A DNA stretch of 60,719 bases, the filler included. It is 8 parts of 8 records of this genome, joined end to end, with 100 filler letters (N's around TTAATTAATTAA, not from the genome) between each part and the next. Parts side by side here need not be neighbours in the genome. Positions count along the whole stretch, not along the records: positions 50,079 to 55,299 come from SRR31147125_59784; 7 more parts are not named here. One strand, given 5' to 3'. The notes beneath the pieces are model-generated. The model saw only the letters and a list, made by a program, of their open reading frames with translations, did not search any database and had not been told where the DNA came from. Of the stretch, positions 4,184 through 55,399 are shown in pieces; within the stretch, counting starts at the first letter, position 1, and each line of letters opens with the position of its first letter. The translations under genes and the position numbers were made by a program.

Positions 4184-7100
4184 ATGATGAATAATTTAAT
4201 CGGCAAAACAATTTCCCATTATAAAATCCTTGAACTTATCGGACAGGGAGGAATGGGACAAGTATTCAAAGCTCAAGATACCCGACTGCTTCGTAATGTA
4301 GCGATCAAAATTTTACCCACAGACTTGATGAAAGATGAAAAGAAACGCAACCGATTCATCCGTGAAGCCCAAACAGCTTCATCACTAAACCATCCCAATA
4401 TCTGCACAGTCCATGAGATCGATGAATACAGAAACAAGCATTTTATTGTAATGGAATTGATTGAAGGAGAAACCTTACGCGAACGATTGGAAAGTAGCGG
4501 TCCATTTTCTGAAGCAGCAATGTTGGATATCATCATAAAAGTCTGTGATGCGCTGGCAGCAGTACACAATAAGGAAATTTTCCATCGCGACATCAAGCCG
4601 GATAACATAATGGTTTCCCAACAGGGGTATATTAAAGTTCTTGATTTTGGAATCGCCAAGTTAGCAACTGATACGGCAGAAGAGTTTGCCGAGTGGAAAC
4701 GAAACGAAGATTCTGTCCGCGATTTAAAAGATATGCAAGAAAAGTACATTAATAATGTCGTGAGCACCAACCTGAGCAACTTACTCGGCACTGTTCATTA
4801 TATGTCACCTGAACAAGCGCAAGGTTTGTCAATTGATCAACGGAGTGATATATTCTCTCTTGGAATAGTTATTTATGAATTGATAACAGGTTTACGACCC
4901 TTTGATGGAAAATCTAATTTAGCTATCCTTACACAAATTATTAATGATCCGCCTGAACCGGTGAAACCTCCAGAAAAAAACATTTCCTCTGCTTTGCAAC
5001 ACATAATAGATCGCTGCCTTGAAAAAAGCACTGATAACCGTTATCAAAACATTGAAGATTTGTGTTCAGAATTAAGAAAAATTAAAAAGGTTGTATCTGA
5101 AGTCGGTCTTCAGCAACCGAAAAAATCCGCGGTCCATAAACCAGAACGCCGTCAGGTGACAGTAATGCTTTGCAGCCTAGCAAGTACAGCATTGCACTCG
5201 ATCGAGCTTGATCCGGAAGAAGTGCATGAAGTATTGCCTGCATATCAAGAACTTTGTATAAAGGTCATTTCACGTTATGATGGTTTTATCGTACGAAATC
5301 TTGGCAATGAAATTATGGTTTGCTATGGGATGCCACAGGCTCATGAAGACGATGCAAAACGTGCGGTTCATTCAGGATTGGGTATCTTGGAAGGACAGAG
5401 GTGGTTGAGTTCTCGCTATGAAGATGAGAAAGGTATCAAAATTGTCGTGAGCATTGGGATTCACACGGGTATGGTAGTAACAGGAGATATGGGAGAAAAA
5501 GACCAACATGACACTTTATCCATGGTTGGCGAAACTCCCAGCATTGCAGCTCAGCTATTAAGCCTTGCAAAACCCGGGACTCTCGTCATTAGTACCAACA
5601 CATACAGACTTGTAAAGGGATTTTTTGATTGCCTTGATTTAGGCGCTCACCAGCTTAAAGGTTTTTCACAACCGACTTCAATACACGAGGTACTTCACGA
5701 AAGTGCCGCGCGAAGCCGGTTCGAGAAAGCAACAGCTTCTACCGGGCTAACCCCGCTTGTTGGACGGAGGCAGGATGTCGACTTGCTGATTGAACATTGG
5801 GAATGTGCAGTAAAAGGCAAAGGACATGTTGTTGTAATCAATGGCGAAGCAGGTATTGGTAAATCACGGCTGGTGCATGTGTTAAAAGAGCACATCGCGA
5901 AAAATCCGAAAGCATGGCTGACAGAATGCCAATGTTCACCCTTTTTTAAGGATAGTGCCTTTTACCCGATTGTCGATCTTTTAGAGCATGTTACATTGCA
6001 GTTTCAGCGGGAAGATTCTAAAGAAGAGAAACTTAACAAGCTGGAGGGTTTTCTCCTACAATATGGTTTCTCCCTGAGTGAGATTGTTCCCCTGTTAGCA
6101 TCATTACTGTCCTTACCTCTTGGTAAACGTTATTCACCACTCAATTTAACTCCGGAACGGCAAAAGCAGAAGACTATGGAATTTTTAGTGAAACTTCTGC
6201 AGGCAAGAGCAGCAAAGCAACCAGTATTATTCGTGATGGAAGACTTACATTGGGCCGATCCCTCGACAATTGAACTTCTTAATCTTTTCATTGAAAAAGA
6301 GCCGTCAGCTTCTATTCTTACTTTATTCACTTTTCGGTCGGAATTTCAACCACCATGGTCGAAAACTGCGTACATAACTCAACTAATCCTCAAACGCCTA
6401 CCCCAACCTCAGGTAAACCGCATGGCCGAGCTTGTGGCAGGTGACAAAGCTTTGCCAACCGAAGTGATTCATCAAATATCAACTAAAACTGACGGAGTGC
6501 CACTATTTGTAGAAGAGATGACCAAAGTGTTTATAGAATCTGGATTGCTCACAAAGGATGAAAGTCAATACGTGCTGAGCCATCGGCTGCCACAACTGGC
6601 TATCCCGGCAACCTTAAAAGATATGCTGACTGCACGGTTAGATCAATTACCAGCTGCTAAAGAAGTTGCTCAGCTAGGGGCAGTTATAGGACGCGAATTT
6701 CCTTATGATCTGCTCGAGATAGTAGTAAAACTGGATTCTCAATCACTGCAGCAGCGGTTAACTCAATTGGTGGAGGCGGGGCTTGTTTATCAGCACGGCG
6801 TCCCACCACACTCAACATATATTTTTAAACACGCCCTGATCCAGGATGCAGCATACGAGTCGTTGCTAAAGAGCAAGAGACGGCATTATCATCAACAAAT
6901 TGCGCAGATGTTTAACGAAAAGTTCCCGAAAACAGCCGAGACACAACCGGAATTATTGGCTCACCACTATACAGAGGCAGGTCTTTTTAAACAAGCCATC
7001 CTCTATTGGCAACAAGCCGGACAACAGGCTCTAAAGCGCTCAGCCAACCTGGAGGCAATCAGCCATCTCAACAAAGGACTGGAATTGCTTAAAACTTTTC

Positions 7101-13618: not shown

Positions 13619-13718
13619 NNNNNNNNNNNNNNNNNNNNNNNNNNNNNNNNNNNNNNNNNNNNTTAATTAATTAANNNNNNNNNNNNNNNNNNNNNNNNNN
13701 NNNNNNNNNNNNNNNNNN
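13619..13718. other. Artificial contig linker (N-run + TTAATTAATTAA + N-run); the same linker occurs at 20624-20723, 28709-28808, 37480-37579, 43156-43255, 49979-50078 and 55300-55399
   Basis: Identical 100-nt spacer with stops in all frames. Genes are truncated at the linkers, and composition and apparent taxonomy change across them. Confidence 0.98.
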
Positions 13719-20623: not shown

Positions 20624-20723
20624 NNNNNNNNNNNNNNNNNNNNNNNNNNNNNNNNNNNNNNNNNNNNTTAATTAATTAANNNNNNNNNNNNNNNNNNNNN
20701 NNNNNNNNNNNNNNNNNNNNNNN

Positions 20724-28708: not shown

Positions 28709-28808
28709 NNNNNNNNNNNNNNNNNNNNNNNNNNNNNNNNNNNNNNNNNNNNTTAATTAATTAANNNNNNNNNNNNNNNNNNNNNNNNNNNNNNNNNNNN
28801 NNNNNNNN

Positions 28809-37479: not shown

Positions 37480-37579
37480 NNNNNNNNNNNNNNNNNNNNN
37501 NNNNNNNNNNNNNNNNNNNNNNNTTAATTAATTAANNNNNNNNNNNNNNNNNNNNNNNNNNNNNNNNNNNNNNNNNNNN

Positions 37580-43155: not shown

Positions 43156-43255
43156 NNNNNNNNNNNNNNNNNNNNNNNNNNNNNNNNNNNNNNNNNNNNT
43201 TAATTAATTAANNNNNNNNNNNNNNNNNNNNNNNNNNNNNNNNNNNNNNNNNNNN

Positions 43256-46863: not shown

Positions 46864-48160
46864 ATTATGCATATGTAAATATCTGGGATACATTGGTTGG
46901 TGTCGCCAGATGGGATCAACAAATGGAAATCGCTGATTTTCAATATGATAAAAAGTTCCTGGAAAAAATTGGGACCTTTCTCCATTCAAAATGCCGATTA
47001 GTGAAGGAGACCGTGTTTATAGGTTTGAAGAACTGAAAAATATAAAGGAAAATCAAGAAAGCGATGCATTTAAAGGATTACCCGGCCTGATTGCCGACTC
47101 ACTTCCCGATACATATGGAAACCGGTTAATTGAGAATTGGCTGGCAAGAAACGGCCGTGCTCCCAATAGTATGAACCCGATTGAAAAATTGTGTTTCATA
47201 GGTAATCGGGGCATGGGAGCATTAGAATTTGAACCCGCTCAGATGAAGCAGAATAAAAATACGTTTGCTATCGAAATTGAAAGTCTCATAGCTGCGGCAC
47301 AAAAAATCCTGTCAGACCGAGAGGTCCTAAAAGTAAATATTAATGAAGATGAAAAGCATGCGATGAGAGAAATCTTGAAAATTGGTACATCTGCCGGTGG
47401 AGCAAGGCCTAAAGCTGTTATTGCTTTTAACAAAAAGACGAAAGAAATAAGATCCGGGCAAACTAAGATTCCTGCGGGGTTTGAACATTGGCTTATAAAG
47501 CTTGATGGAGTAAGCGGTATTCAATTCGGCAGCAGTCATGGATGGGGCAGAGTTGAATATGCATATTACCTCATGGCAAAAGAATGTGGAATTAATATGA
47601 CTGAATGTGAACTATTTGAAGAGAATGATCGTGCGCACTTCATGACCAAAAGGTTTGATAGGCAGAATAATACTAAGCATCATATACAAACTTGGTGCGG
47701 TATTCAGCATTTCGATTATTCACATATGTATTCGTATAGCTACGAACAGATGTATCAAACGATGCGGTCACTTCGACTTGGCTATCCTGATGCTGAACAA
47801 ATGTTTAAAAGAATGGTTTTTAATGTCTTAGCGACTAACTGTGATGATCATACCAAGAATTTTTCTTTTCGCTTGAAGAAAGGAAAGAGGTGGGAATTAG
47901 CTCCTGCCTATGATATCTGTTTTTCTTATGATCCGACGAATAAATGGGTTAACCAACAGACATTAAGTATAAATGGGAAGCGCAGTAATTTTGTCCTTGA
48001 AGACTTCATAACCGTAGCAAGTGCTAACAGTATTAAGAGAAGTGAAAAAATAGTAGAAAATATCAATTATACTGTAAAGCATTGGACCGACTTTGCAAAA
48101 GAGGCAAAGGTGAATGAAAAGTTGCGTAACCACATTCAGAAGCATCTAAGAACATTCTAG
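46857..48160 (+). CDS. hipA: HipA-family kinase toxin; apparent frameshift near 46965
   Basis: MVDYAYVNIWDTLVG N-terminal domain, GLIADSLPDTYGN, RGMGALEF, GTSAGGARPK, KRFDR, NCDDHTKNFSF, LAPAYD. Confidence 0.9.
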
Positions 48161-49842: not shown

Positions 49843-50353
49843 CATGCCATGCACTGAACGAAAGAATGTGGAAATATAGCTTGAATTTTTCGTTATTTGC
49901 CCTACGGCATCACCATATTCACGTACTTCATTAACTCATCAATCAAGTTGCTGCCATCATTAATATAAAAAACCCAAANNNNNNNNNNNNNNNNNNNNNN
50001 NNNNNNNNNNNNNNNNNNNNNNTTAATTAATTAANNNNNNNNNNNNNNNNNNNNNNNNNNNNNNNNNNNNNNNNNNNNATGTGAAGAAAAAGAGCACCAA
50101 GCCAAATGTGAAGCTGGTACCGGCTGCTTGAAAACAGTACAATAGTGCTTTGTCCGGACATACTCACCCTGGGTACTCGATGATATGGAATGTGACCGTT
50201 TCCATTGTGTCCGGACACTCATTTTTTTGTATCAAAATATTGCATAACCCCTTAGATCGGCCCGGCGCCGGTGGTGATCCTCATGATATTGAGTTTCATT
50301 TTTTCCGTTACGCTACCAAGTGACATTTTTAAAATCCCCCTCCCAACACACTT

Positions 50354-50397
50354 GGACAAGCTATCTCAGAATTTTGGACACTCTATCTCAGAAATTT
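50354..50397. repeat. 44-bp element (2 x 22-bp GGACA..TATCTCAGAA.TTT), copy 1
   Basis: GGACAAGCTATCTCAGAATTTT GGACACTCTATCTCAGAAATTT; 43/44 identical to 54295-54338. Confidence 0.92.
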
Positions 50398-50424
50398 AGA
50401 TGAGCTTCTAATTTGTGTTTCTAA

Positions 50425-50985
50425 TCACATGGCAAGATAACGATACAACGTTGCCTTGCTGACATCCAATGTTTTGCAGATATCGAGGATTCCCATTGTT
50501 TTATCTGCATGCATTGTTTTGGCGGCAATAACTTTGGGATCATCTTTTTTGACCGCCTTTCTGCCGCCTTTTTTTCCTCTTGCCCTGGCTGCCTTCAGAC
50601 CGGCTTGTGTACGCTCTTGAATCAATCGACGCTCAAATTGAGCCATTGAAGCAAAGATGTTAAAAACAAGTTCACCCGAGGCCGATGTGGTATCAATAGC
50701 TCCGTCCTGAATAGATTTGAAATCAACACCTCTTTCCCTAAGATCATCGACCACCTGAACCAAGTGAATCATTGACCGGCCCAATCTATCGATACGCCAG
50801 ACCACCAATGTGTCTCCCCGGGACAATGCAGCCAAACACTTATCAAGTTCAGGGCGATCTGCTTTAGCACCGGATACCTTCTCTTTAAATATCTTGGTGC
50901 ATCCCGTCTCTTCCAGGTCAGCTATTTGCATATCAAGGCTTTGATCTTCTGTGCTTACCCTTGCATATCCAATTGTTCTTCCCAT
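50425..50985 (-). CDS. Serine resolvase/invertase-family recombinase 1
   Basis: IGYARVSTEDQ, EKVSG, GDTLVVWRIDRLGRS, AQFERRLIQERT..GL.AARARG..GGR, HTH VSKATLYRY. GGAGG RBS before ATG 50985. Confidence 0.95.
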   Translation of the reverse strand: MGRTIGYARVSTEDQSLDMQIADLEETGCTKIFKEKVSGAKADRPELDKCLAALSRGDTLVVWRIDRLGRSMIHLVQVVDDLRERGVDFKSIQDGAIDTTSASGELVFNIFASMAQFERRLIQERTQAGLKAARARGKKGGRKAVKKDDPKVIAAKTMHADKTMGILDICKTLDVSKATLYRYLAM

Positions 50986-51017
50986 CTCGCTTCCTCCATT
51001 CAGTCGCAATTATTATA

Positions 51018-51158
51018 AGTCTCATAAAAACAAAGAGAGCATGAGTTGTCAAGACTTTATTTATGAGACGAAAAAAAATGAGACTTGAAGACATGCATAA
51101 AATGGTTTTTCGATGTGGTTGAGTCTCAAGTCTCATAAAACGACCGTTTGATGAGACT
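51018..51158. promoter_or_regulatory. res site of recombinase 1; crossover site I at 51129-51158
   Basis: Repeated GTCTCAT/ATGAGAC arms. The distal site AGTCTCATAAAACG-AC-CGTTTGATGAGACT has the 14-2-14 inverted geometry of resolvase site I. Confidence 0.8.
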
Positions 51159-51322
51159 CCATTCTTAAACCACTATTCAATGAAAGAATGATTGAGGAAT
51201 AGATTTGTATCCAACTAATTCGCTCGAACTAGCCCTAAACTGCCAACGTGATTTTTTTTCTTATCAATGATATGATTCCGGAATTAATTTGATCAGCTCT
51301 AACATGCAAGGGATCATTATCA

Positions 51323-52588
51323 ATGCTGCAATATAAAAATTTATCCTTTGATCGGGAATCAATTCTTAAAGAAGATGAGGCAACTTATCAGTCCCGAAGC
51401 TCAGGAAAGACGATTGAAGCCCCCAAAGATTATCGTCTCATAGACTTGTTCTCCGGTGCCGGCGGAATGTCATTGGGTTTTTCAAGCGCTTTTAATCAGC
51501 CTTTTTATTCGGTATGGGCAAATGACTTCAATAAATTCTGCGTTGATACGTATAACAAAAACTTTGGTGAGCACTGCATACATGGCGACATCGTAGAAAT
51601 TCTCGAATCCGGTGAAATTGAAATACCTGATGCGGATGTCGTGATCGGCGGCCCTCCATGCCAAGGCTTCAGTCTACTTAATAAAAAAAGAGACAACGAT
51701 CCCCGAAAAAAACTATGGCGCCCATTTCTTGAAGTTGTAGAAAAAAGCGGAGCATCCGTTTTTGTTATGGAGAATGTCTCGCAACTTCTCGGTACATTGG
51801 AACATTCGGAAATCGTGGAAACCGCTCAAAGCCTCGGATTTAAACTCTCATATGACAAACTGATAGCTGCCGACTACGGTGTTCCTCAAACCAGAACAAG
51901 GGCATTCATTATAGGATGCAAATTTGCCGATCCTGCGCTACTCTTTCCCCCGCGTAAGACTCATTTCAATCCCAAAACAAACGGCAATGCCAAACAGGCA
52001 ACCCTCCCATTTAATCGTGAAGAGTTTCTGCCTCAACCTCGAAGGTGGCGAACTGTAAAAGATGCAGTAGGTGATCTTCCCAGCCCCGTAGGAACTGCAA
52101 TCAGAGACATTCCTCCACCACTTGATTTACATTTTGGAAGAAATCCCACAGAATTAAGCCGAAAGAGATACCGAGCAATTCCTGAACAAGGGATGAACCG
52201 TTTCGATCTTCAACGAATTGCACCGGAGTTGACTCCAAATTGCTGGATCAAAAAGAAGTCAGGGGGAACCGACCTGTTCGGCAGGCTATGGTGGAATCGC
52301 CCTTCGGTAACGATACGCACTGAATTTTTTAAACCGGAAAAGGGGCGTTACCTGCATCCTGAGCAACACCGCCCCATAACCCATAGGGAAGCCGCCCGCT
52401 TTCAAAGCTTCCCGGATAATTTTCAATTTACGGGATCAAAAATTGAAATTGCCAAACAAATCGGTAATGCAGTCCCTCCCTTGCTGGCTACCCGCATTGC
52501 CGATGTCGTCCGGATACTTCTTAACCGACACCATGACCAATGGATATCTTCACAAAAGAAAAACGAACTCAAATTATGTCGCGTATAG
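51323..52588 (+). CDS. dcm: DNA cytosine-5 methyltransferase
   Basis: DLFSGAGG, GGPPCQGFS, ENV, YGVPQTRTR, REAARFQSFPD, QIGNAVPP. Confidence 0.96.
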   Translation: MLQYKNLSFDRESILKEDEATYQSRSSGKTIEAPKDYRLIDLFSGAGGMSLGFSSAFNQPFYSVWANDFNKFCVDTYNKNFGEHCIHGDIVEILESGEIEIPDADVVIGGPPCQGFSLLNKKRDNDPRKKLWRPFLEVVEKSGASVFVMENVSQLLGTLEHSEIVETAQSLGFKLSYDKLIAADYGVPQTRTRAFIIGCKFADPALLFPPRKTHFNPKTNGNAKQATLPFNREEFLPQPRRWRTVKDAVGDLPSPVGTAIRDIPPPLDLHFGRNPTELSRKRYRAIPEQGMNRFDLQRIAPELTPNCWIKKKSGGTDLFGRLWWNRPSVTIRTEFFKPEKGRYLHPEQHRPITHREAARFQSFPDNFQFTGSKIEIAKQIGNAVPPLLATRIADVVRILLNRHHDQWISSQKKNELKLCRV

Positions 52589-52956
52589 GCGGCAAAAACA
52601 CCAAGCCCGAATTAATTGTCCGTTCATTACTCCACCATATGGGTTACAGGTTCCGGCTTCACAGAAAGGACTTACCGGGTAAGCCGGATATCGTTCTGCC
52701 CAAATACCAAACGGTTATTTTTGTTCATGGCTGTTTCTGGCATAGCCACCCCGGATGTAAACGATCAAAACGGCCGTCAACCAATGTCGAATTCTGGAAT
52801 AAAAAACTAGACAAGAATATCCGGAGAGATAAGGAAAACATCTTCGCTCTGGAATCTTCCGGATGGAGAGTTTTGGTCATCTGGGCTTGTGAAGTAAATG
52901 ATATGCACCAACTTGAAACTACCCTCACCGCATTTTTGGAAAAGAATATAATTTAA
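52540..52956 (+). CDS. vsr: Very short patch repair endonuclease
   Basis: MDIFTKEKR..IMSRI..KNTKPE, DLPGKPDIV, FVHGCFWH, GWRVLVIW.CE. Confidence 0.96.
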   Translation: MDIFTKEKRTQIMSRIGGKNTKPELIVRSLLHHMGYRFRLHRKDLPGKPDIVLPKYQTVIFVHGCFWHSHPGCKRSKRPSTNVEFWNKKLDKNIRRDKENIFALESSGWRVLVIWACEVNDMHQLETTLTAFLEKNII

Positions 52957-52969
52957 GAAAGTAATCAAC

Positions 52970-53881
52970 ATGCAGTCGGAAGAGATAAGAAGGCAATTAC
53001 AAAAGTTATTGAGTAACTTTGAGCAGGAACTGAAATCAGGAACACTGAGAGCCAAGGTTCTATCCCTTGTGCCGTGTTTTAACCATTTACGAGACTTGGG
53101 AAAGTCACTGATTCCTGCTTCGGTTGCCAAAAATGCACGAGATAGGATCCTTCATTATTTCATGAATTACCCCAAGATGATCATTAGCGGGGATGAACTT
53201 CTTGTGGTTTCCGGTATCCAGGAATATGCAAGAAGGGTAAGAGAACTTAGAGTACAGTTCGGCTGGTCCATTGCAAGCGGTTTGACTGCCAAACAAATGG
53301 CAAAAGAAAACGAGTTTTCCATTCCGGATATCGATGTTTCTTCCATGGGACCCTCGGATTACATCATGCTGTCCACAGAACAGGATAGAGACGCGGCTCA
53401 TCGTTGGAACCTGGCGAATGAAATAAGAAGGGAGCCCATCGGGGTAAGGGATAAGATCCTCACTTATTTTCGAAACAATGTCGGTCAAAAAGTGACCGGT
53501 GAAGAGCTAAAATACCTTGCAAAGGATAAATCCGAATGGGGGCGAAGAGTCAGAGAGCTACGTACTGAGTTCGGCTGGCCGATCGTCACTCAAAGTACAG
53601 GGCGCCCAGATCTTGAGGTGGGGGTATATATTCTCGAAGCAGACCGCCAGAGCCCTGAGCATGATCGGAAAATACCGGATCCGATTAAAAGAAAAGTCCT
53701 CCGAAGAGACGGCCATAAATGCACAAAATGCGAATGGTCTCATAAAGAATGGAACCGCTCCGACCCCAGACATTTGGAATTGCACCATGTCAAACCACAT
53801 GCAGAAGGTGGTGCCAACACCGAGGAAAATTTGATTACAGTCTGCACAGTTTGCCATGATGAAGTTCATCGGAAGAAATGA
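52970..53881 (+). CDS. HNH endonuclease, probable type II restriction enzyme with duplicated N-terminal DNA-binding domain
   Basis: RD.IL.YF.N...G.EL...E(Y/W).RRVRELR..FGW.I occurs twice. C-terminal RRDGHKCTKC...LELHHV..H..GG....ENLITVCTVCH. Operonic with dcm-vsr. Confidence 0.85.
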   Translation: MQSEEIRRQLQKLLSNFEQELKSGTLRAKVLSLVPCFNHLRDLGKSLIPASVAKNARDRILHYFMNYPKMIISGDELLVVSGIQEYARRVRELRVQFGWSIASGLTAKQMAKENEFSIPDIDVSSMGPSDYIMLSTEQDRDAAHRWNLANEIRREPIGVRDKILTYFRNNVGQKVTGEELKYLAKDKSEWGRRVRELRTEFGWPIVTQSTGRPDLEVGVYILEADRQSPEHDRKIPDPIKRKVLRRDGHKCTKCEWSHKEWNRSDPRHLELHHVKPHAEGGANTEENLITVCTVCHDEVHRKK

Positions 53882-54190
53882 AATATAGCATATTTGAGGT
53901 CGGTGCGAGTCCGGAGGACCGGAGATTAAATCCATATTCCTAACCGGGGAACAGATCGCACTCATCATCTATCGGGGAGATCCGGAACAGGCATCAATAA
54001 ATTAAGATTGATCTCCCTCCAACACTTCTCGAAAATTTCTTTTTAAAAATTAAAATCCATTCGAATTTTTGAGCTCTCCCTGTGTAGGGGGAGATGTCAA
54101 ACAATAATCACTCACTCATCACCTTTGTCTTTATGTATATTTTGAATATTCGTAACCGGAGGTTCGGCATTCGAACCTCTGGGAGGGAAT

Positions 54191-54204
54191 CGTTTGATGA
54201 GACT
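54191..54204. repeat. Exact copy of the right arm of res site I
   Basis: CGTTTGATGAGACT is identical to 51145-51158 and in direct orientation. Confidence 0.9.
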
Positions 54205-54294
54205 GGTAACTCCACAAACCAACTCCAACATCACCGATCGATCCCCGACACCACCCGGCCGGATCCAGTACCGCCACGCGCTCCGACTAAGTTC

Positions 54295-54338
54295 GGACAA
54301 GCTATCTCAGAATTTTGGACACCCTATCTCAGAAATTT
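54295..54338. repeat. 44-bp element (2 x 22 bp), copy 2
   Basis: GGACAAGCTATCTCAGAATTTT GGACACCCTATCTCAGAAATTT, followed by ...TTATCGACA (TGTCGATA on the minus strand). Confidence 0.92.
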
Positions 54339-54383
54339 GAGAGAATTATCGACAGGAAAGGCCGGTCACCCAGCCCATAATCG

Positions 54384-54950
54384 CTATTCGGGTGTGCCTA
54401 CTTTCAAAATATTGTAAATCGTTCCCCTGGAAACTCCATATTCCCTTGATAGCCCTGTGGGAGTCTTGCCAGCTGCCCTCTTCTCATGAATTTCCTTTTG
54501 CTGATCGACGGTCAAGGTGGGCTTTCGGCCACAATGCACACCTTTGGATTGTGCAGCCTTGATTCCCGCCACCTGACGCTCACGTCTCAGATTCGTTTCA
54601 AACTCTGCAAAGACCCCAAGCATCTGAAGAAACGCCTTACCGGATGCCGTGCCGGTATCGATAGCCTGGTCAAGAATCTCTAAGTGTGCTCCCTTCTGTT
54701 CCAGCATAGTGACGATGTTGGTCAAGTCGTTCATATCCCTTGCCAGACGGTCAAGCTTCCACACCACCAACTTATCGCCCTGGGTGATCATGTCCAAGAT
54801 GAGAGAAAGCACCTCCCGGCTCTTCATGCTGGTACCTGATTGCTTTTCTTCCCGGTAAACCGCATCGGGATATTTTTTTCTCAGGGCCGTTTCCTGAAGG
54901 TGAGTATTTTGATCCAAGGTGCTGACTCGGGCGTAAAGAAAAGTGTTCAT
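54384..54950 (-). CDS. Serine resolvase-family recombinase 2
   Basis: LYARVSTLDQ, EKQSG, GDKLVVWKLDRLAR, FAEFETNLRRERQ.AGI, HTH GVSRGTIY. Confidence 0.95.
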   Translation of the reverse strand: MNTFLYARVSTLDQNTHLQETALRKKYPDAVYREEKQSGTSMKSREVLSLILDMITQGDKLVVWKLDRLARDMNDLTNIVTMLEQKGAHLEILDQAIDTGTASGKAFLQMLGVFAEFETNLRRERQVAGIKAAQSKGVHCGRKPTLTVDQQKEIHEKRAAGKTPTGLSREYGVSRGTIYNILKVGTPE

Positions 54951-54965
54951 GATCTGTCCTCCAAA

Positions 54966-55094
54966 TGTGTCAAAAAAGTGTTCAACAACATATAGAAGAT
55001 TTTAGAACGAACGTCAAGAATTGAAAATCAACCTTTTTGACGCCCATTTCACGGGAATTCGATTTGTGTTCAAAAAGGTATACCTTGATGACAA
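54966..55094. promoter_or_regulatory. res site of recombinase 2; probable site I at ~55067-55094
   Basis: GTCAAAAA/TTTTTGAC and GTTCAA arms. The distal GTTCAAAAAGGT-AT-ACCTTGATGAC is centred on AT at 55080-55081. Confidence 0.6.
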
Positions 55095-55204
55095 CACTAT
55101 ATCTTGTGGTTGTAACATTCGAATAATCTCAACCACTTGCTGGCGTAATGAGCGCCAGTAAAAAGTCTGACGCTTCATCTCAATTTCAGCGATCGACTTT
55201 ATAA

Positions 55205-55299
55205 TTACGAGGGATTCTCACTTTGCTTTTGAACTTCTTCGAGAAAAACCATAATTTCTGGATCATTCCTCCATCCTCGGGCCAACTCTTGGACAGCGG
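55205..55299 (-). CDS. 3' end of a HEAT-repeat protein (resembles the repeats of NACHT-HEAT proteins), 5'-truncated
   Basis: Minus-strand translation AVQELARGWRNDPEIMVFLEEVQKQSENPS*. Confidence 0.5.
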
Positions 55300-55399
55300 N
55301 NNNNNNNNNNNNNNNNNNNNNNNNNNNNNNNNNNNNNNNNNNNTTAATTAATTAANNNNNNNNNNNNNNNNNNNNNNNNNNNNNNNNNNNNNNNNNNNN

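Follow-up and report, generated by a model that had tools for sequence, protein, structure and literature searches.

Organization of the locus

The DNA analysed here (the window, 60,719 bases) consists of eight concatenated contigs of 5.2-13.6 kb each with GC contents of 0.38-0.51. One of them, a 5221-bp contig at positions 50079..55299, carries a restriction-modification (R-M) operon enclosed between the crossover site of a small serine recombinase gene, rec1, and a lone exact copy of one arm of that site. It is bounded by two of the seven identical 100-nt N runs around TTAATTAATTAA that separate the contigs (13619-13718, 20624-20723, 28709-28808, 37480-37579, 43156-43255, 49979-50078 and 55300-55399), and genes separated by such a spacer lack physical linkage. 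Read from the left, the contig comprises the last 17 codons of a plus-strand gene, a repeat termed D4, rec1 on the minus strand, its resolution site (res), the R-M operon, a hairpin, the isolated half-site, a 90-bp C-rich spacer, a second D4 copy, a second recombinase gene (rec2) on the minus strand and the res-like region of rec2.

The rec1 gene (50425..51009, minus strand) encodes a small serine recombinase with a Pfam Resolvase domain (PF00239, 4.1e-49) and an HTH_7 domain (PF02796, 3.7e-07), the Ser19 of which aligns with the catalytic Ser9 of Gin. As listed, the open reading frame begins with TTG at 51009; the ATG at 50985, which follows GGAGGA and yields a protein of 186 amino acids (aa) as in the relatives, is likely the true start. 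Upstream of rec1 lies a res site of the Tn3/gamma-delta type, in which predicted accessory subsites separate the gene from a palindromic subsite farthest from it. The accessory part (51010..51128) contains an inverted repeat pair, extra copies of the arm motif and, on the minus strand, a promoter-like element (TTGACA-17-TTTTAT) that was found by eye and on which the automated scan made no call. The motif GTCTCATAAA occurs at 51019 (plus strand) and 51060 (minus strand) besides site I. Site I itself (51129..51158) is composed of two 14-bp arms, AGTCTCATAAAACG (51129-51142) and CGTTTGATGAGACT (51145-51158), around the dinucleotide AC (51143-51144), the presumed point of crossover.

The right arm of site I occurs a second time with a period of 3046 bp. 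This isolated half-site (54189..54204) is made up of a central AT (54189-54190) and an exact copy of CGTTTGATGAGACT (54191-54204) in direct orientation, starting right after the central dinucleotide, just as a preliminary description of this DNA had stated to the base. The start of the repeat is the position of the top-strand cut, and identity between the two copies ends at once in either direction, with C versus T to the left and c versus g to the right. Thus, the repeat is exactly one arm, reaching from the centre to the outer end of the palindrome. Its length of 14 bp is not compelling in itself; the weight rests on the exact coincidence with arm and centre. By arithmetic from base composition, the chance of a second exact copy of a given 14-mer in 5.2 kb is about 4.5e-5. 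How frequent the 14-mer is in the host was checked on the 60.7-kb window alone, all other comparisons being made with related public sequence. Allowing up to two mismatches, both strands of the window together contained three matches, namely the two direct copies and the partner arm (one mismatch); the shuffle expectation was 0.57, and three matches were reached in 3/100 shuffles. A 14-mer common in the host genome was one of the refuting findings named in the preliminary description.

A misassembly at 54190, the second artefact considered there, is not indicated. A 5216-nt assembled contig of sequencing run X1 is colinear with the whole 5221-bp contig and has no joint at 51144 or 54190. Since the 14-bp repeat is, in addition, shorter than the assembler's word, this argues against a false junction. 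X1 is the sole run found with DNA of this contig and may be its source; X2, a run from the same sample, gives no cover. Both ends of the contig recur on other X1 contigs with a higher summed depth, which is probably the reason why the assembly stops there.

The surroundings of the half-site differ in composition. The 90-bp C-rich spacer that follows it (54205..54294) has a GC content of 0.60 versus 0.41 in the 309 bp preceding the half-site. Just before the half-site, the hairpin with an 11-bp stem seen earlier was verified (54156..54182, plus strand; 11 pairs including one G-T, a 5-nt loop and no T-run after it). As plus-strand RNA it reaches -27.9 kcal/mol with a z score of -3.5, compared with -2.1 on the minus strand, and it may serve as a 3′ stem-loop of the R-M transcript. 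A promoter and terminator scan of the contig returned counts no higher than the shuffle expectation and did not call the hairpin a terminator, and an Rfam scan of the 5221-bp contig found nothing near gathering score. We also considered the hairpin as an attC-like folded site and rejected this, as nothing beyond its stability speaks for it and serine recombinases work on duplex DNA.

Relatives of rec1 and exchange at site I

Relatives of rec1 were found on genome contigs (17 loci, best 63% identity), metagenome contigs (34 loci, best 65%) and viral contigs (3 loci, best 50%), and in 14 of 251 Desulfobacterales genomes (best 67%). About 110-175 bp upstream of these rec1-like genes, a core AACG-NN-CGT is conserved. 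Among the 29 loci with enough upstream sequence, 13 have the core ACG-RY-CGT upstream of the gene, with palindromic arms in 12 of the 13; locus L022 was excluded from the site I set on account of its non-palindromic flanks. The exact site I pattern had 0 matches in viral contigs. Conservation of the core at the same distance from the gene supports both the identity of site I and the position of its centre as first proposed, and this comparison carries more weight than the other lines of evidence. Judged by its sequence, the palindrome 51129-51158 is a true site I centred on 51143-51144.

The relative with the highest identity to rec1 (L087, 67% aa) has a perfect palindrome, AGTCCCATCAAACG-AT-CGTTTGATGGGACT, and L088 (62% aa) has a site I reading TGTCCCACCAAACG-TC-CGTTTGATGGGACC. 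Across the family the arms are conserved and the central dinucleotide varies (AT, TC, AC, GT), as expected of the overlap at a crossover. The AT and arm at 54189-54204 equal the right half of the L087 site I at 15/16 positions. AT followed by CGTTTGATGAGACT hence has the look of a genuine family half-site together with its centre, and its credibility as such gains from the AT centre of the closest relative. The mismatch between the two centres of the window, about which the preliminary description had cautioned, is real; its weight is softened by the variable centres of the family and by the AT of L087, and AT and AC are a single transition apart.

The same description had predicted that cargo would switch exactly at the site I centre. 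In a Sphingomonas-type group (about 51% aa identity to rec1), 6.7 kb of homology on the gene side (82-97%, blastn) stops 13-18 bp past the site I centre, at the distal arm. This break was seen in three of four pairs (L003/L004, L024/L027 and L003/L027), and the fourth, L004/L024, also shares the distal UmuD region. In a second group (L030/L012/L032), homology extends about 45 bp beyond the centre, and a break at site I is therefore not universal among relatives. As far as the first group goes, relatives do show a switch of flanking DNA at site I. Cargo past site I in the relatives is diverse and includes UmuDC, Fic, a cation-efflux fragment, P450 with DUF4142, and dCTP-deaminase-like with UDG-like genes.

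Tn3-type transposase domains (DUF4158, DDE_Tnp_Tn3) lie near the resolvase in L087 and L088, indicating that the rec1 clade includes TnpR proteins of the Tn3 family. Most likely, rec1 belongs to a Tn3-family or plasmid resolution module, as the resolvase acting on its multi-subsite res. No Tn3-type transposase or terminal inverted repeat was found on the 5.2-kb contig, both ends of which are cut by repeats. The closest solved chain to rec1 is that of the Gin invertase (4m6f, 1.7e-43), with the gamma-delta and Tn3 resolvases at about 1e-29; a 3-kb segment beside a Gin-like recombinase gene resembles an invertible segment, and the arm copy is also a 13/14 inverted match to the other arm of site I. 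Even so, it is highly improbable that the locus is an invertase-type switch. Such a switch fails because its second site is without one arm: Gin and Hin act on two inverted complete sites, whereas here the 14 bp left of 54189 match the arm at 2/14 positions, which upholds the earlier caveat that the distal left arm is not res-like. Moreover, accessory motif copies with an overlapping promoter are found as in resolvase res sites, and the nearest relatives sit in Tn3-type transposons.

Some of these loci have features of their own. Directly past site I, L088 (4425-8223) encodes a 568-aa protein without Pfam match and an AAA_22 ATPase, a pair reminiscent of the transposition-protein pairs of res-targeting transposons; further on it carries genes for a YhcG nuclease, Fic, an integrase and a Tn3-type transposase. 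The cargo of a 63% relative (L001, 371-3624) consists of two dCTP-deaminase-like genes, a UDG-superfamily gene and one unknown gene, and could be a defence module of the nucleotide-depletion type. In L008/L030, a 32-bp perfect inverted repeat (797-828 and 4227-4258) encloses 3.46 kb with site I, res and the rec1-like gene, a block that may constitute a small transposon-like unit.

The restriction-modification cargo

The 3046 bp between the two arm copies (51145-54190) hold the Dcm, Vsr and HNH genes only and no transposase, which confirms the initial account of the cargo. An AT-rich leader (51159..51322, 164 bp, GC 0.34) without similarity to the leaders of orthologous R-M units connects site I to dcm. 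The three genes, all on the plus strand, code for a C5 cytosine DNA methyltransferase (dcm, 51323..52588; PF00145, 2.2e-62; TIGR00675), a very-short-patch mismatch endonuclease (vsr, 52540..52956; PF03852, 2.7e-32; TIGR00632) and an HNH nuclease (52970..53881; PF01844, 2.8e-09), which is presumed to be the restriction endonuclease. An m5C methyltransferase, Vsr and a nuclease are thus kept together as in a type II R-M system with Vsr, and the corresponding activity is predicted.

The dcm-vsr-HNH triad also occurs in four plasmid or viral loci (L057-L060: a Sphingomonas plasmid, a Pandoraea plasmid and two IMG/VR contigs), and R-M DNA was matched in 27 of 401 sampled Desulfobacterales genomes. 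There the match spans from just inside dcm to the HNH stop, with 67-73% identity at the DNA level and 64-83% at the aa level. Ten Desulfobacterales loci that were fetched carry parts of the R-M unit, the triad being intact in five, and none of the ten has a rec1- or rec2-like gene within about 1.5 kb of it. Beyond about 80 bp upstream and 50 bp downstream, the flanks of the unit in Desulfobacterales are unrelated to each other and to the flanks in the window. The presence of the triad in unrelated flanks across genomes points to a unit that moves horizontally between contexts. In four of the loci (L113, L114, L116 and L118), the HNH gene is broken, truncated or absent and dcm and vsr are retained, a pattern that fits loss of the nuclease with the methylase kept as an orphan.

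The placement of the R-M unit at res with a flanking arm repeat is peculiar to the 5221-bp contig. The longest direct repeat flanking the unit is at most 11 bp in 8/8 Desulfobacterales and 4/4 plasmid or viral loci, versus 14 bp here. These values bear on whether the operon arrived without a resolvase, by a short-homology (Campbell-type) integration at the 14-bp identity or by an insertion that duplicated its target. Integration at a short shared sequence does leave a flanking direct repeat, and R-M units flanked by target duplications have been described. Yet the incoming DNA would have to carry exactly one resolvase arm, bounded by the centre and the outer end, and a flanking repeat longer than 11 bp was present in 0/12 homologous R-M loci. 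We therefore consider an arrival of this kind quite unlikely.

Origin of the structure

With moderate confidence, we interpret the structure as the scar of a one-off event in which site I of a Tn3-family or plasmid resolution module recombined with a one-armed site. Circular or co-integrated DNA would have carried the latter (X-AT-arm) together with the R-M genes, and rec1, or a resolvase nearly identical to it, would have catalysed the exchange between the two sites at their central dinucleotide. The outcome would be a full site I on the recombinase side and, on the far side, a hybrid junction of unrelated DNA, centre and exact arm. The simplest path would take two steps. In a donor carrying the R-M unit beyond an identical res, site I would recombine with a pseudo-site, and this aberrant excision would release a circle with X-centre-arm, which would then integrate into an intact site I. 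Such a path would give both junctions, the start of the repeat at the cut and its end where unrelated flanks diverge. The jump in GC content after 54204 fits it as well; under an insertion model, the spacer 54205..54294 would be the original neighbour of site I. The difference between AC and AT could stem from how a heteroduplex centre was resolved, or from a single transition at a later time. Since mismatched centres should hinder re-excision by a serine recombinase, we read the structure as a fossil, most likely of one or a few illegitimate site-specific events, and not as a working cassette platform.

The preliminary description had proposed that the defence cargo was moved by recombination between site I and a secondary site. 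This proposal found partial support: the anatomy with the repeat starting at the crossover, the conserved core of site I, the breakpoints at that site in relatives and the separate mobility of the R-M operon are all shown, whereas catalysis by rec1, the order of events and the circular intermediate are inferred. Several observations weigh against the scar interpretation. The cargo bounded by a half-site is a single example: an extra arm copy with up to two mismatches was present in 0/11 relatives with a recognised site I, the window stood alone among 46 loci in a generic scan for direct repeats of at least 14 bp from the res region, and 22 further gene copies gave one extra-arm match, which is A/T-rich with two mismatches and not convincing. 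A repeat of at least 14 bp elsewhere in the locus was seen in 29/230 random 240-bp control windows of related loci. The left side of the half-site, at 2/14 matches, is no better than chance, and a dimer of the resolvase would have been obliged to cleave a site of very low quality; as a rule, wild-type resolvases of the Tn3 type require two full res sites (PMC2602789). The centres differ, AC at site I and AT at the half-site. No relative of rec1 above 67% aa identity turned up in the genome, metagenome or viral contigs or in the 251 Desulfobacterales genomes, and at this distance the breakpoint cannot be mapped against a sister element. Finally, neither an empty allele (51144-54191) nor a circle joint was found in the X1 assembled contigs, in which rare forms are invisible.

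The last result also bears on the integron-like cassette logic that had been suggested for the locus, i.e. a working, recurrent platform on which site I acts as attI and the resolvase repeatedly captures and releases half-site circles. The geometry would fit, since excision would release X-AT-arm on a circle of 3046 bp and leave site I perfect again, and the cargo beside site I in relatives (UmuDC, Fic, dCTP-deaminase-like and others) is highly diverse. Toxin-antitoxin (TA) modules of the Tn3 family, for which the mechanism of acquisition is stated to be unclear, likewise consistently abut res site I (PMC7157771). Arrays, or several independent cargoes bounded by secondary sites, would mark an integron-like platform. 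The contig, however, contains one cargo, no array of units each starting with the arm was found on it, and the 46 loci, 11 relatives and 22 gene copies mentioned above provided no second case. In G022 and G016, the genomes of the two closest relatives, the arm 13-mer occurs at site I only (three matches versus 0 in controls), and stray arms were found neither in these two nor in G001. The centres of the two sites are mismatched, and the anticipated empty allele and 3046-bp circle did not appear among the X1 contigs, a weak argument, as assembled contigs drop rare variants. A recurrent platform is thus improbable, and the cassette logic proposed for the locus is unsupported.

Alternatively, the half-site might be the remnant of a second complete res. 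Two related res-bearing elements would have undergone fusion or exchange at site I, and everything up to the second centre would have been lost in a later deletion or rearrangement. The relatives of rec1 do show related elements exchanging DNA at site I, as is also documented for the Tn3 family (PMC7157771), and AT plus arm resembles half of an AT-type family site. The sequence left of 54189, however, shows no decayed arm, no accessory motif and no pseudogene of a recombinase, and the sole nearby motif match (53737) falls within the reading frame for HNH. A resolvase would again be implied by a deletion whose end coincides precisely with the central dinucleotide, so that this explanation, unlikely as it stands, largely collapses into the one-off recombination favoured above.

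Comparison with known systems

None of the components stands out when taken singly; resolvase, res site and R-M unit are ordinary, as is exchange at site I. The locus resembles Tn3-family and plasmid res modules in its small serine recombinase beside a multi-subsite res, in crossover at the gene-distal subsite, in variable cargo beyond it and in breakpoints at site I, the latter seen in relatives. In Tn3-family transposons, exchange has been described at a sequence resembling res site I (PMC7157771). In contrast to the locus, such exchanges take place between two complete res sites, with no half-site left behind, whereas here a lone exact arm lies 3046 bp away and the contig is without a Tn3 transposase or terminal repeat within 5.2 kb. 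The TA modules at res site I are alike in that an addiction-type module lies just distal to the site, its transcription leads away from the site, and the resolvase gene is found at the site III end (PMC7157771). They differ in being TA pairs instead of a type II R-M system with Vsr, and the available part of the same paper reports no half-site scars.

Recombination of a full site with a poorly matching site, as proposed here, is a property shared with the quasi-sites and pseudo-sites of serine recombinases, where a mismatch at the centre would leave a heteroduplex that resolves either way. Quasi-site recombination is known for phage invertases. Unlike the natural cargo of our contig, these cases are laboratory-studied inversions, deletions and integrations; pseudo-sites have also been reported for large serine integrases (e.g. 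PMC1904298). For natural cargo capture by a small resolvase at secondary sites, the open-access literature, to the extent that its text was available, contained nothing specific.

The attI x attC system of integrons is similar in that a recombinase gene lies beside the primary site and that a secondary site would delimit the cargo, which could be excised as a circle. In integrons, however, the recombinase is of the tyrosine type, attC is a folded single-stranded site and many cassettes form arrays, as opposed to the serine recombinase, the one cargo and the double-stranded half-site without an array in the present case. Transposons of the Tn5053/Tn402 family have terminal repeats and short target duplications. 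These res-site hunters have in common with our locus the resolvase-dependent arrival of cargo at or near res (PMC7765201, PMC12217951) but carry tni transposition genes, which the 3046 bp do not contain. As far as searched, and within the portions of the open-access literature that were available, no small-resolvase system has been described with a lone exact arm beyond its cargo.

Sites of the res type are known junctions of module swapping between mobile elements. The contig adds one concrete molecular scar pointing to a mechanism, in which a resolvase joined site I to a one-armed site, and thereby bears on how addiction modules come to adjoin res site I. Further scars of this kind, if they turned up, would open the route of acquisition to testing. 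One case on one short contig of metagenomic origin is a lead rather than a system and no proof of general gene capture. A much broader generalization, to which we assign a low probability, would make site I of small-resolvase res sites a docking point that integrates circles with a single half-site, a serine counterpart of attI x attC. If true, it would explain why addiction and defence modules (TA and, here, R-M) are found directly beyond res site I in Tn3-family elements, and a later change of the central dinucleotide would lock the cargo in.

D4 repeats, rec2 and neighbouring contigs

The D4 repeat consists of two tandem 22-bp units (GGACANNCTATCTCAGAAWTTT). Copy 1 (50354..50397, plus strand) lies 27 bp past the rec1 stop, and copy 2 (54295..54338, plus strand), which is 43/44 identical to it, lies 45 bp past the stop of rec2. 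The unit has four exact matches versus an expectation of 0.46, and its 22-bp phasing suggests protein-binding iterons. A third D4-like copy is present on another X1 contig, where a copy of 50084-50126 precedes it by 20 nt. A perfect 10-bp palindrome, TGTCCGGACA, occurs twice upstream of D4 copy 1, at 50151-50160 and 50208-50217, 57 bp apart. It has a GGACA core in common with the D4 units, and the pair may represent operator-like sites for the same protein.

The two D4 copies raise the question of where the module ends. They might be its true borders (50354 and 54295), delimiting a 3941-bp block of rec1, res and the R-M operon, in which case the arm copy would be regulatory, synaptic or incidental. 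The near-identity of the copies, in contrast to the mere 36% of the adjoining recombinase genes, is in line with this, as are their location just 3′ of each gene and the third copy in X1. However, D4 was found in 0/401 Desulfobacterales genomes, on no plasmid, on no viral contig and in 0 of 17 loci with rec1 relatives, and in G001 a single unit with up to two mismatches occurred at chance level (four matches versus three in the control). Above all, D4 borders leave unexplained why the arm copy starts at the crossover, and we give them little credence.

The second small serine recombinase gene, rec2 (54384..54950, minus strand), is 36% identical to rec1. Its res-like region (54960..55096) has a different motif, with a palindrome TGTGTTCAAAAAGG-TATA-CCTTGATGACAACA at 55065-55096. 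Together with its upstream DNA, rec2 shows about 64% DNA identity to the recombinase gene region of the Desulforapulum autotrophicum plasmid pHRM2a. This plasmid contains a tandem duplication of a block of about 5.7 kb with recombinase, RelE/ParE TA and MerR genes.

Two further observations concern the neighbouring contigs. The preceding contig carries a gene for a HipA-like kinase toxin (46991-48160), which has no relation to the R-M and res structure. The last contig (55400-60719, GC 0.51) encodes pieces of ZZ zinc-finger and HECT domains and acidic GAA/GAC repeats and looks like eukaryote-type sequence within a bacterial bin, either contamination or eukaryote-like effectors.

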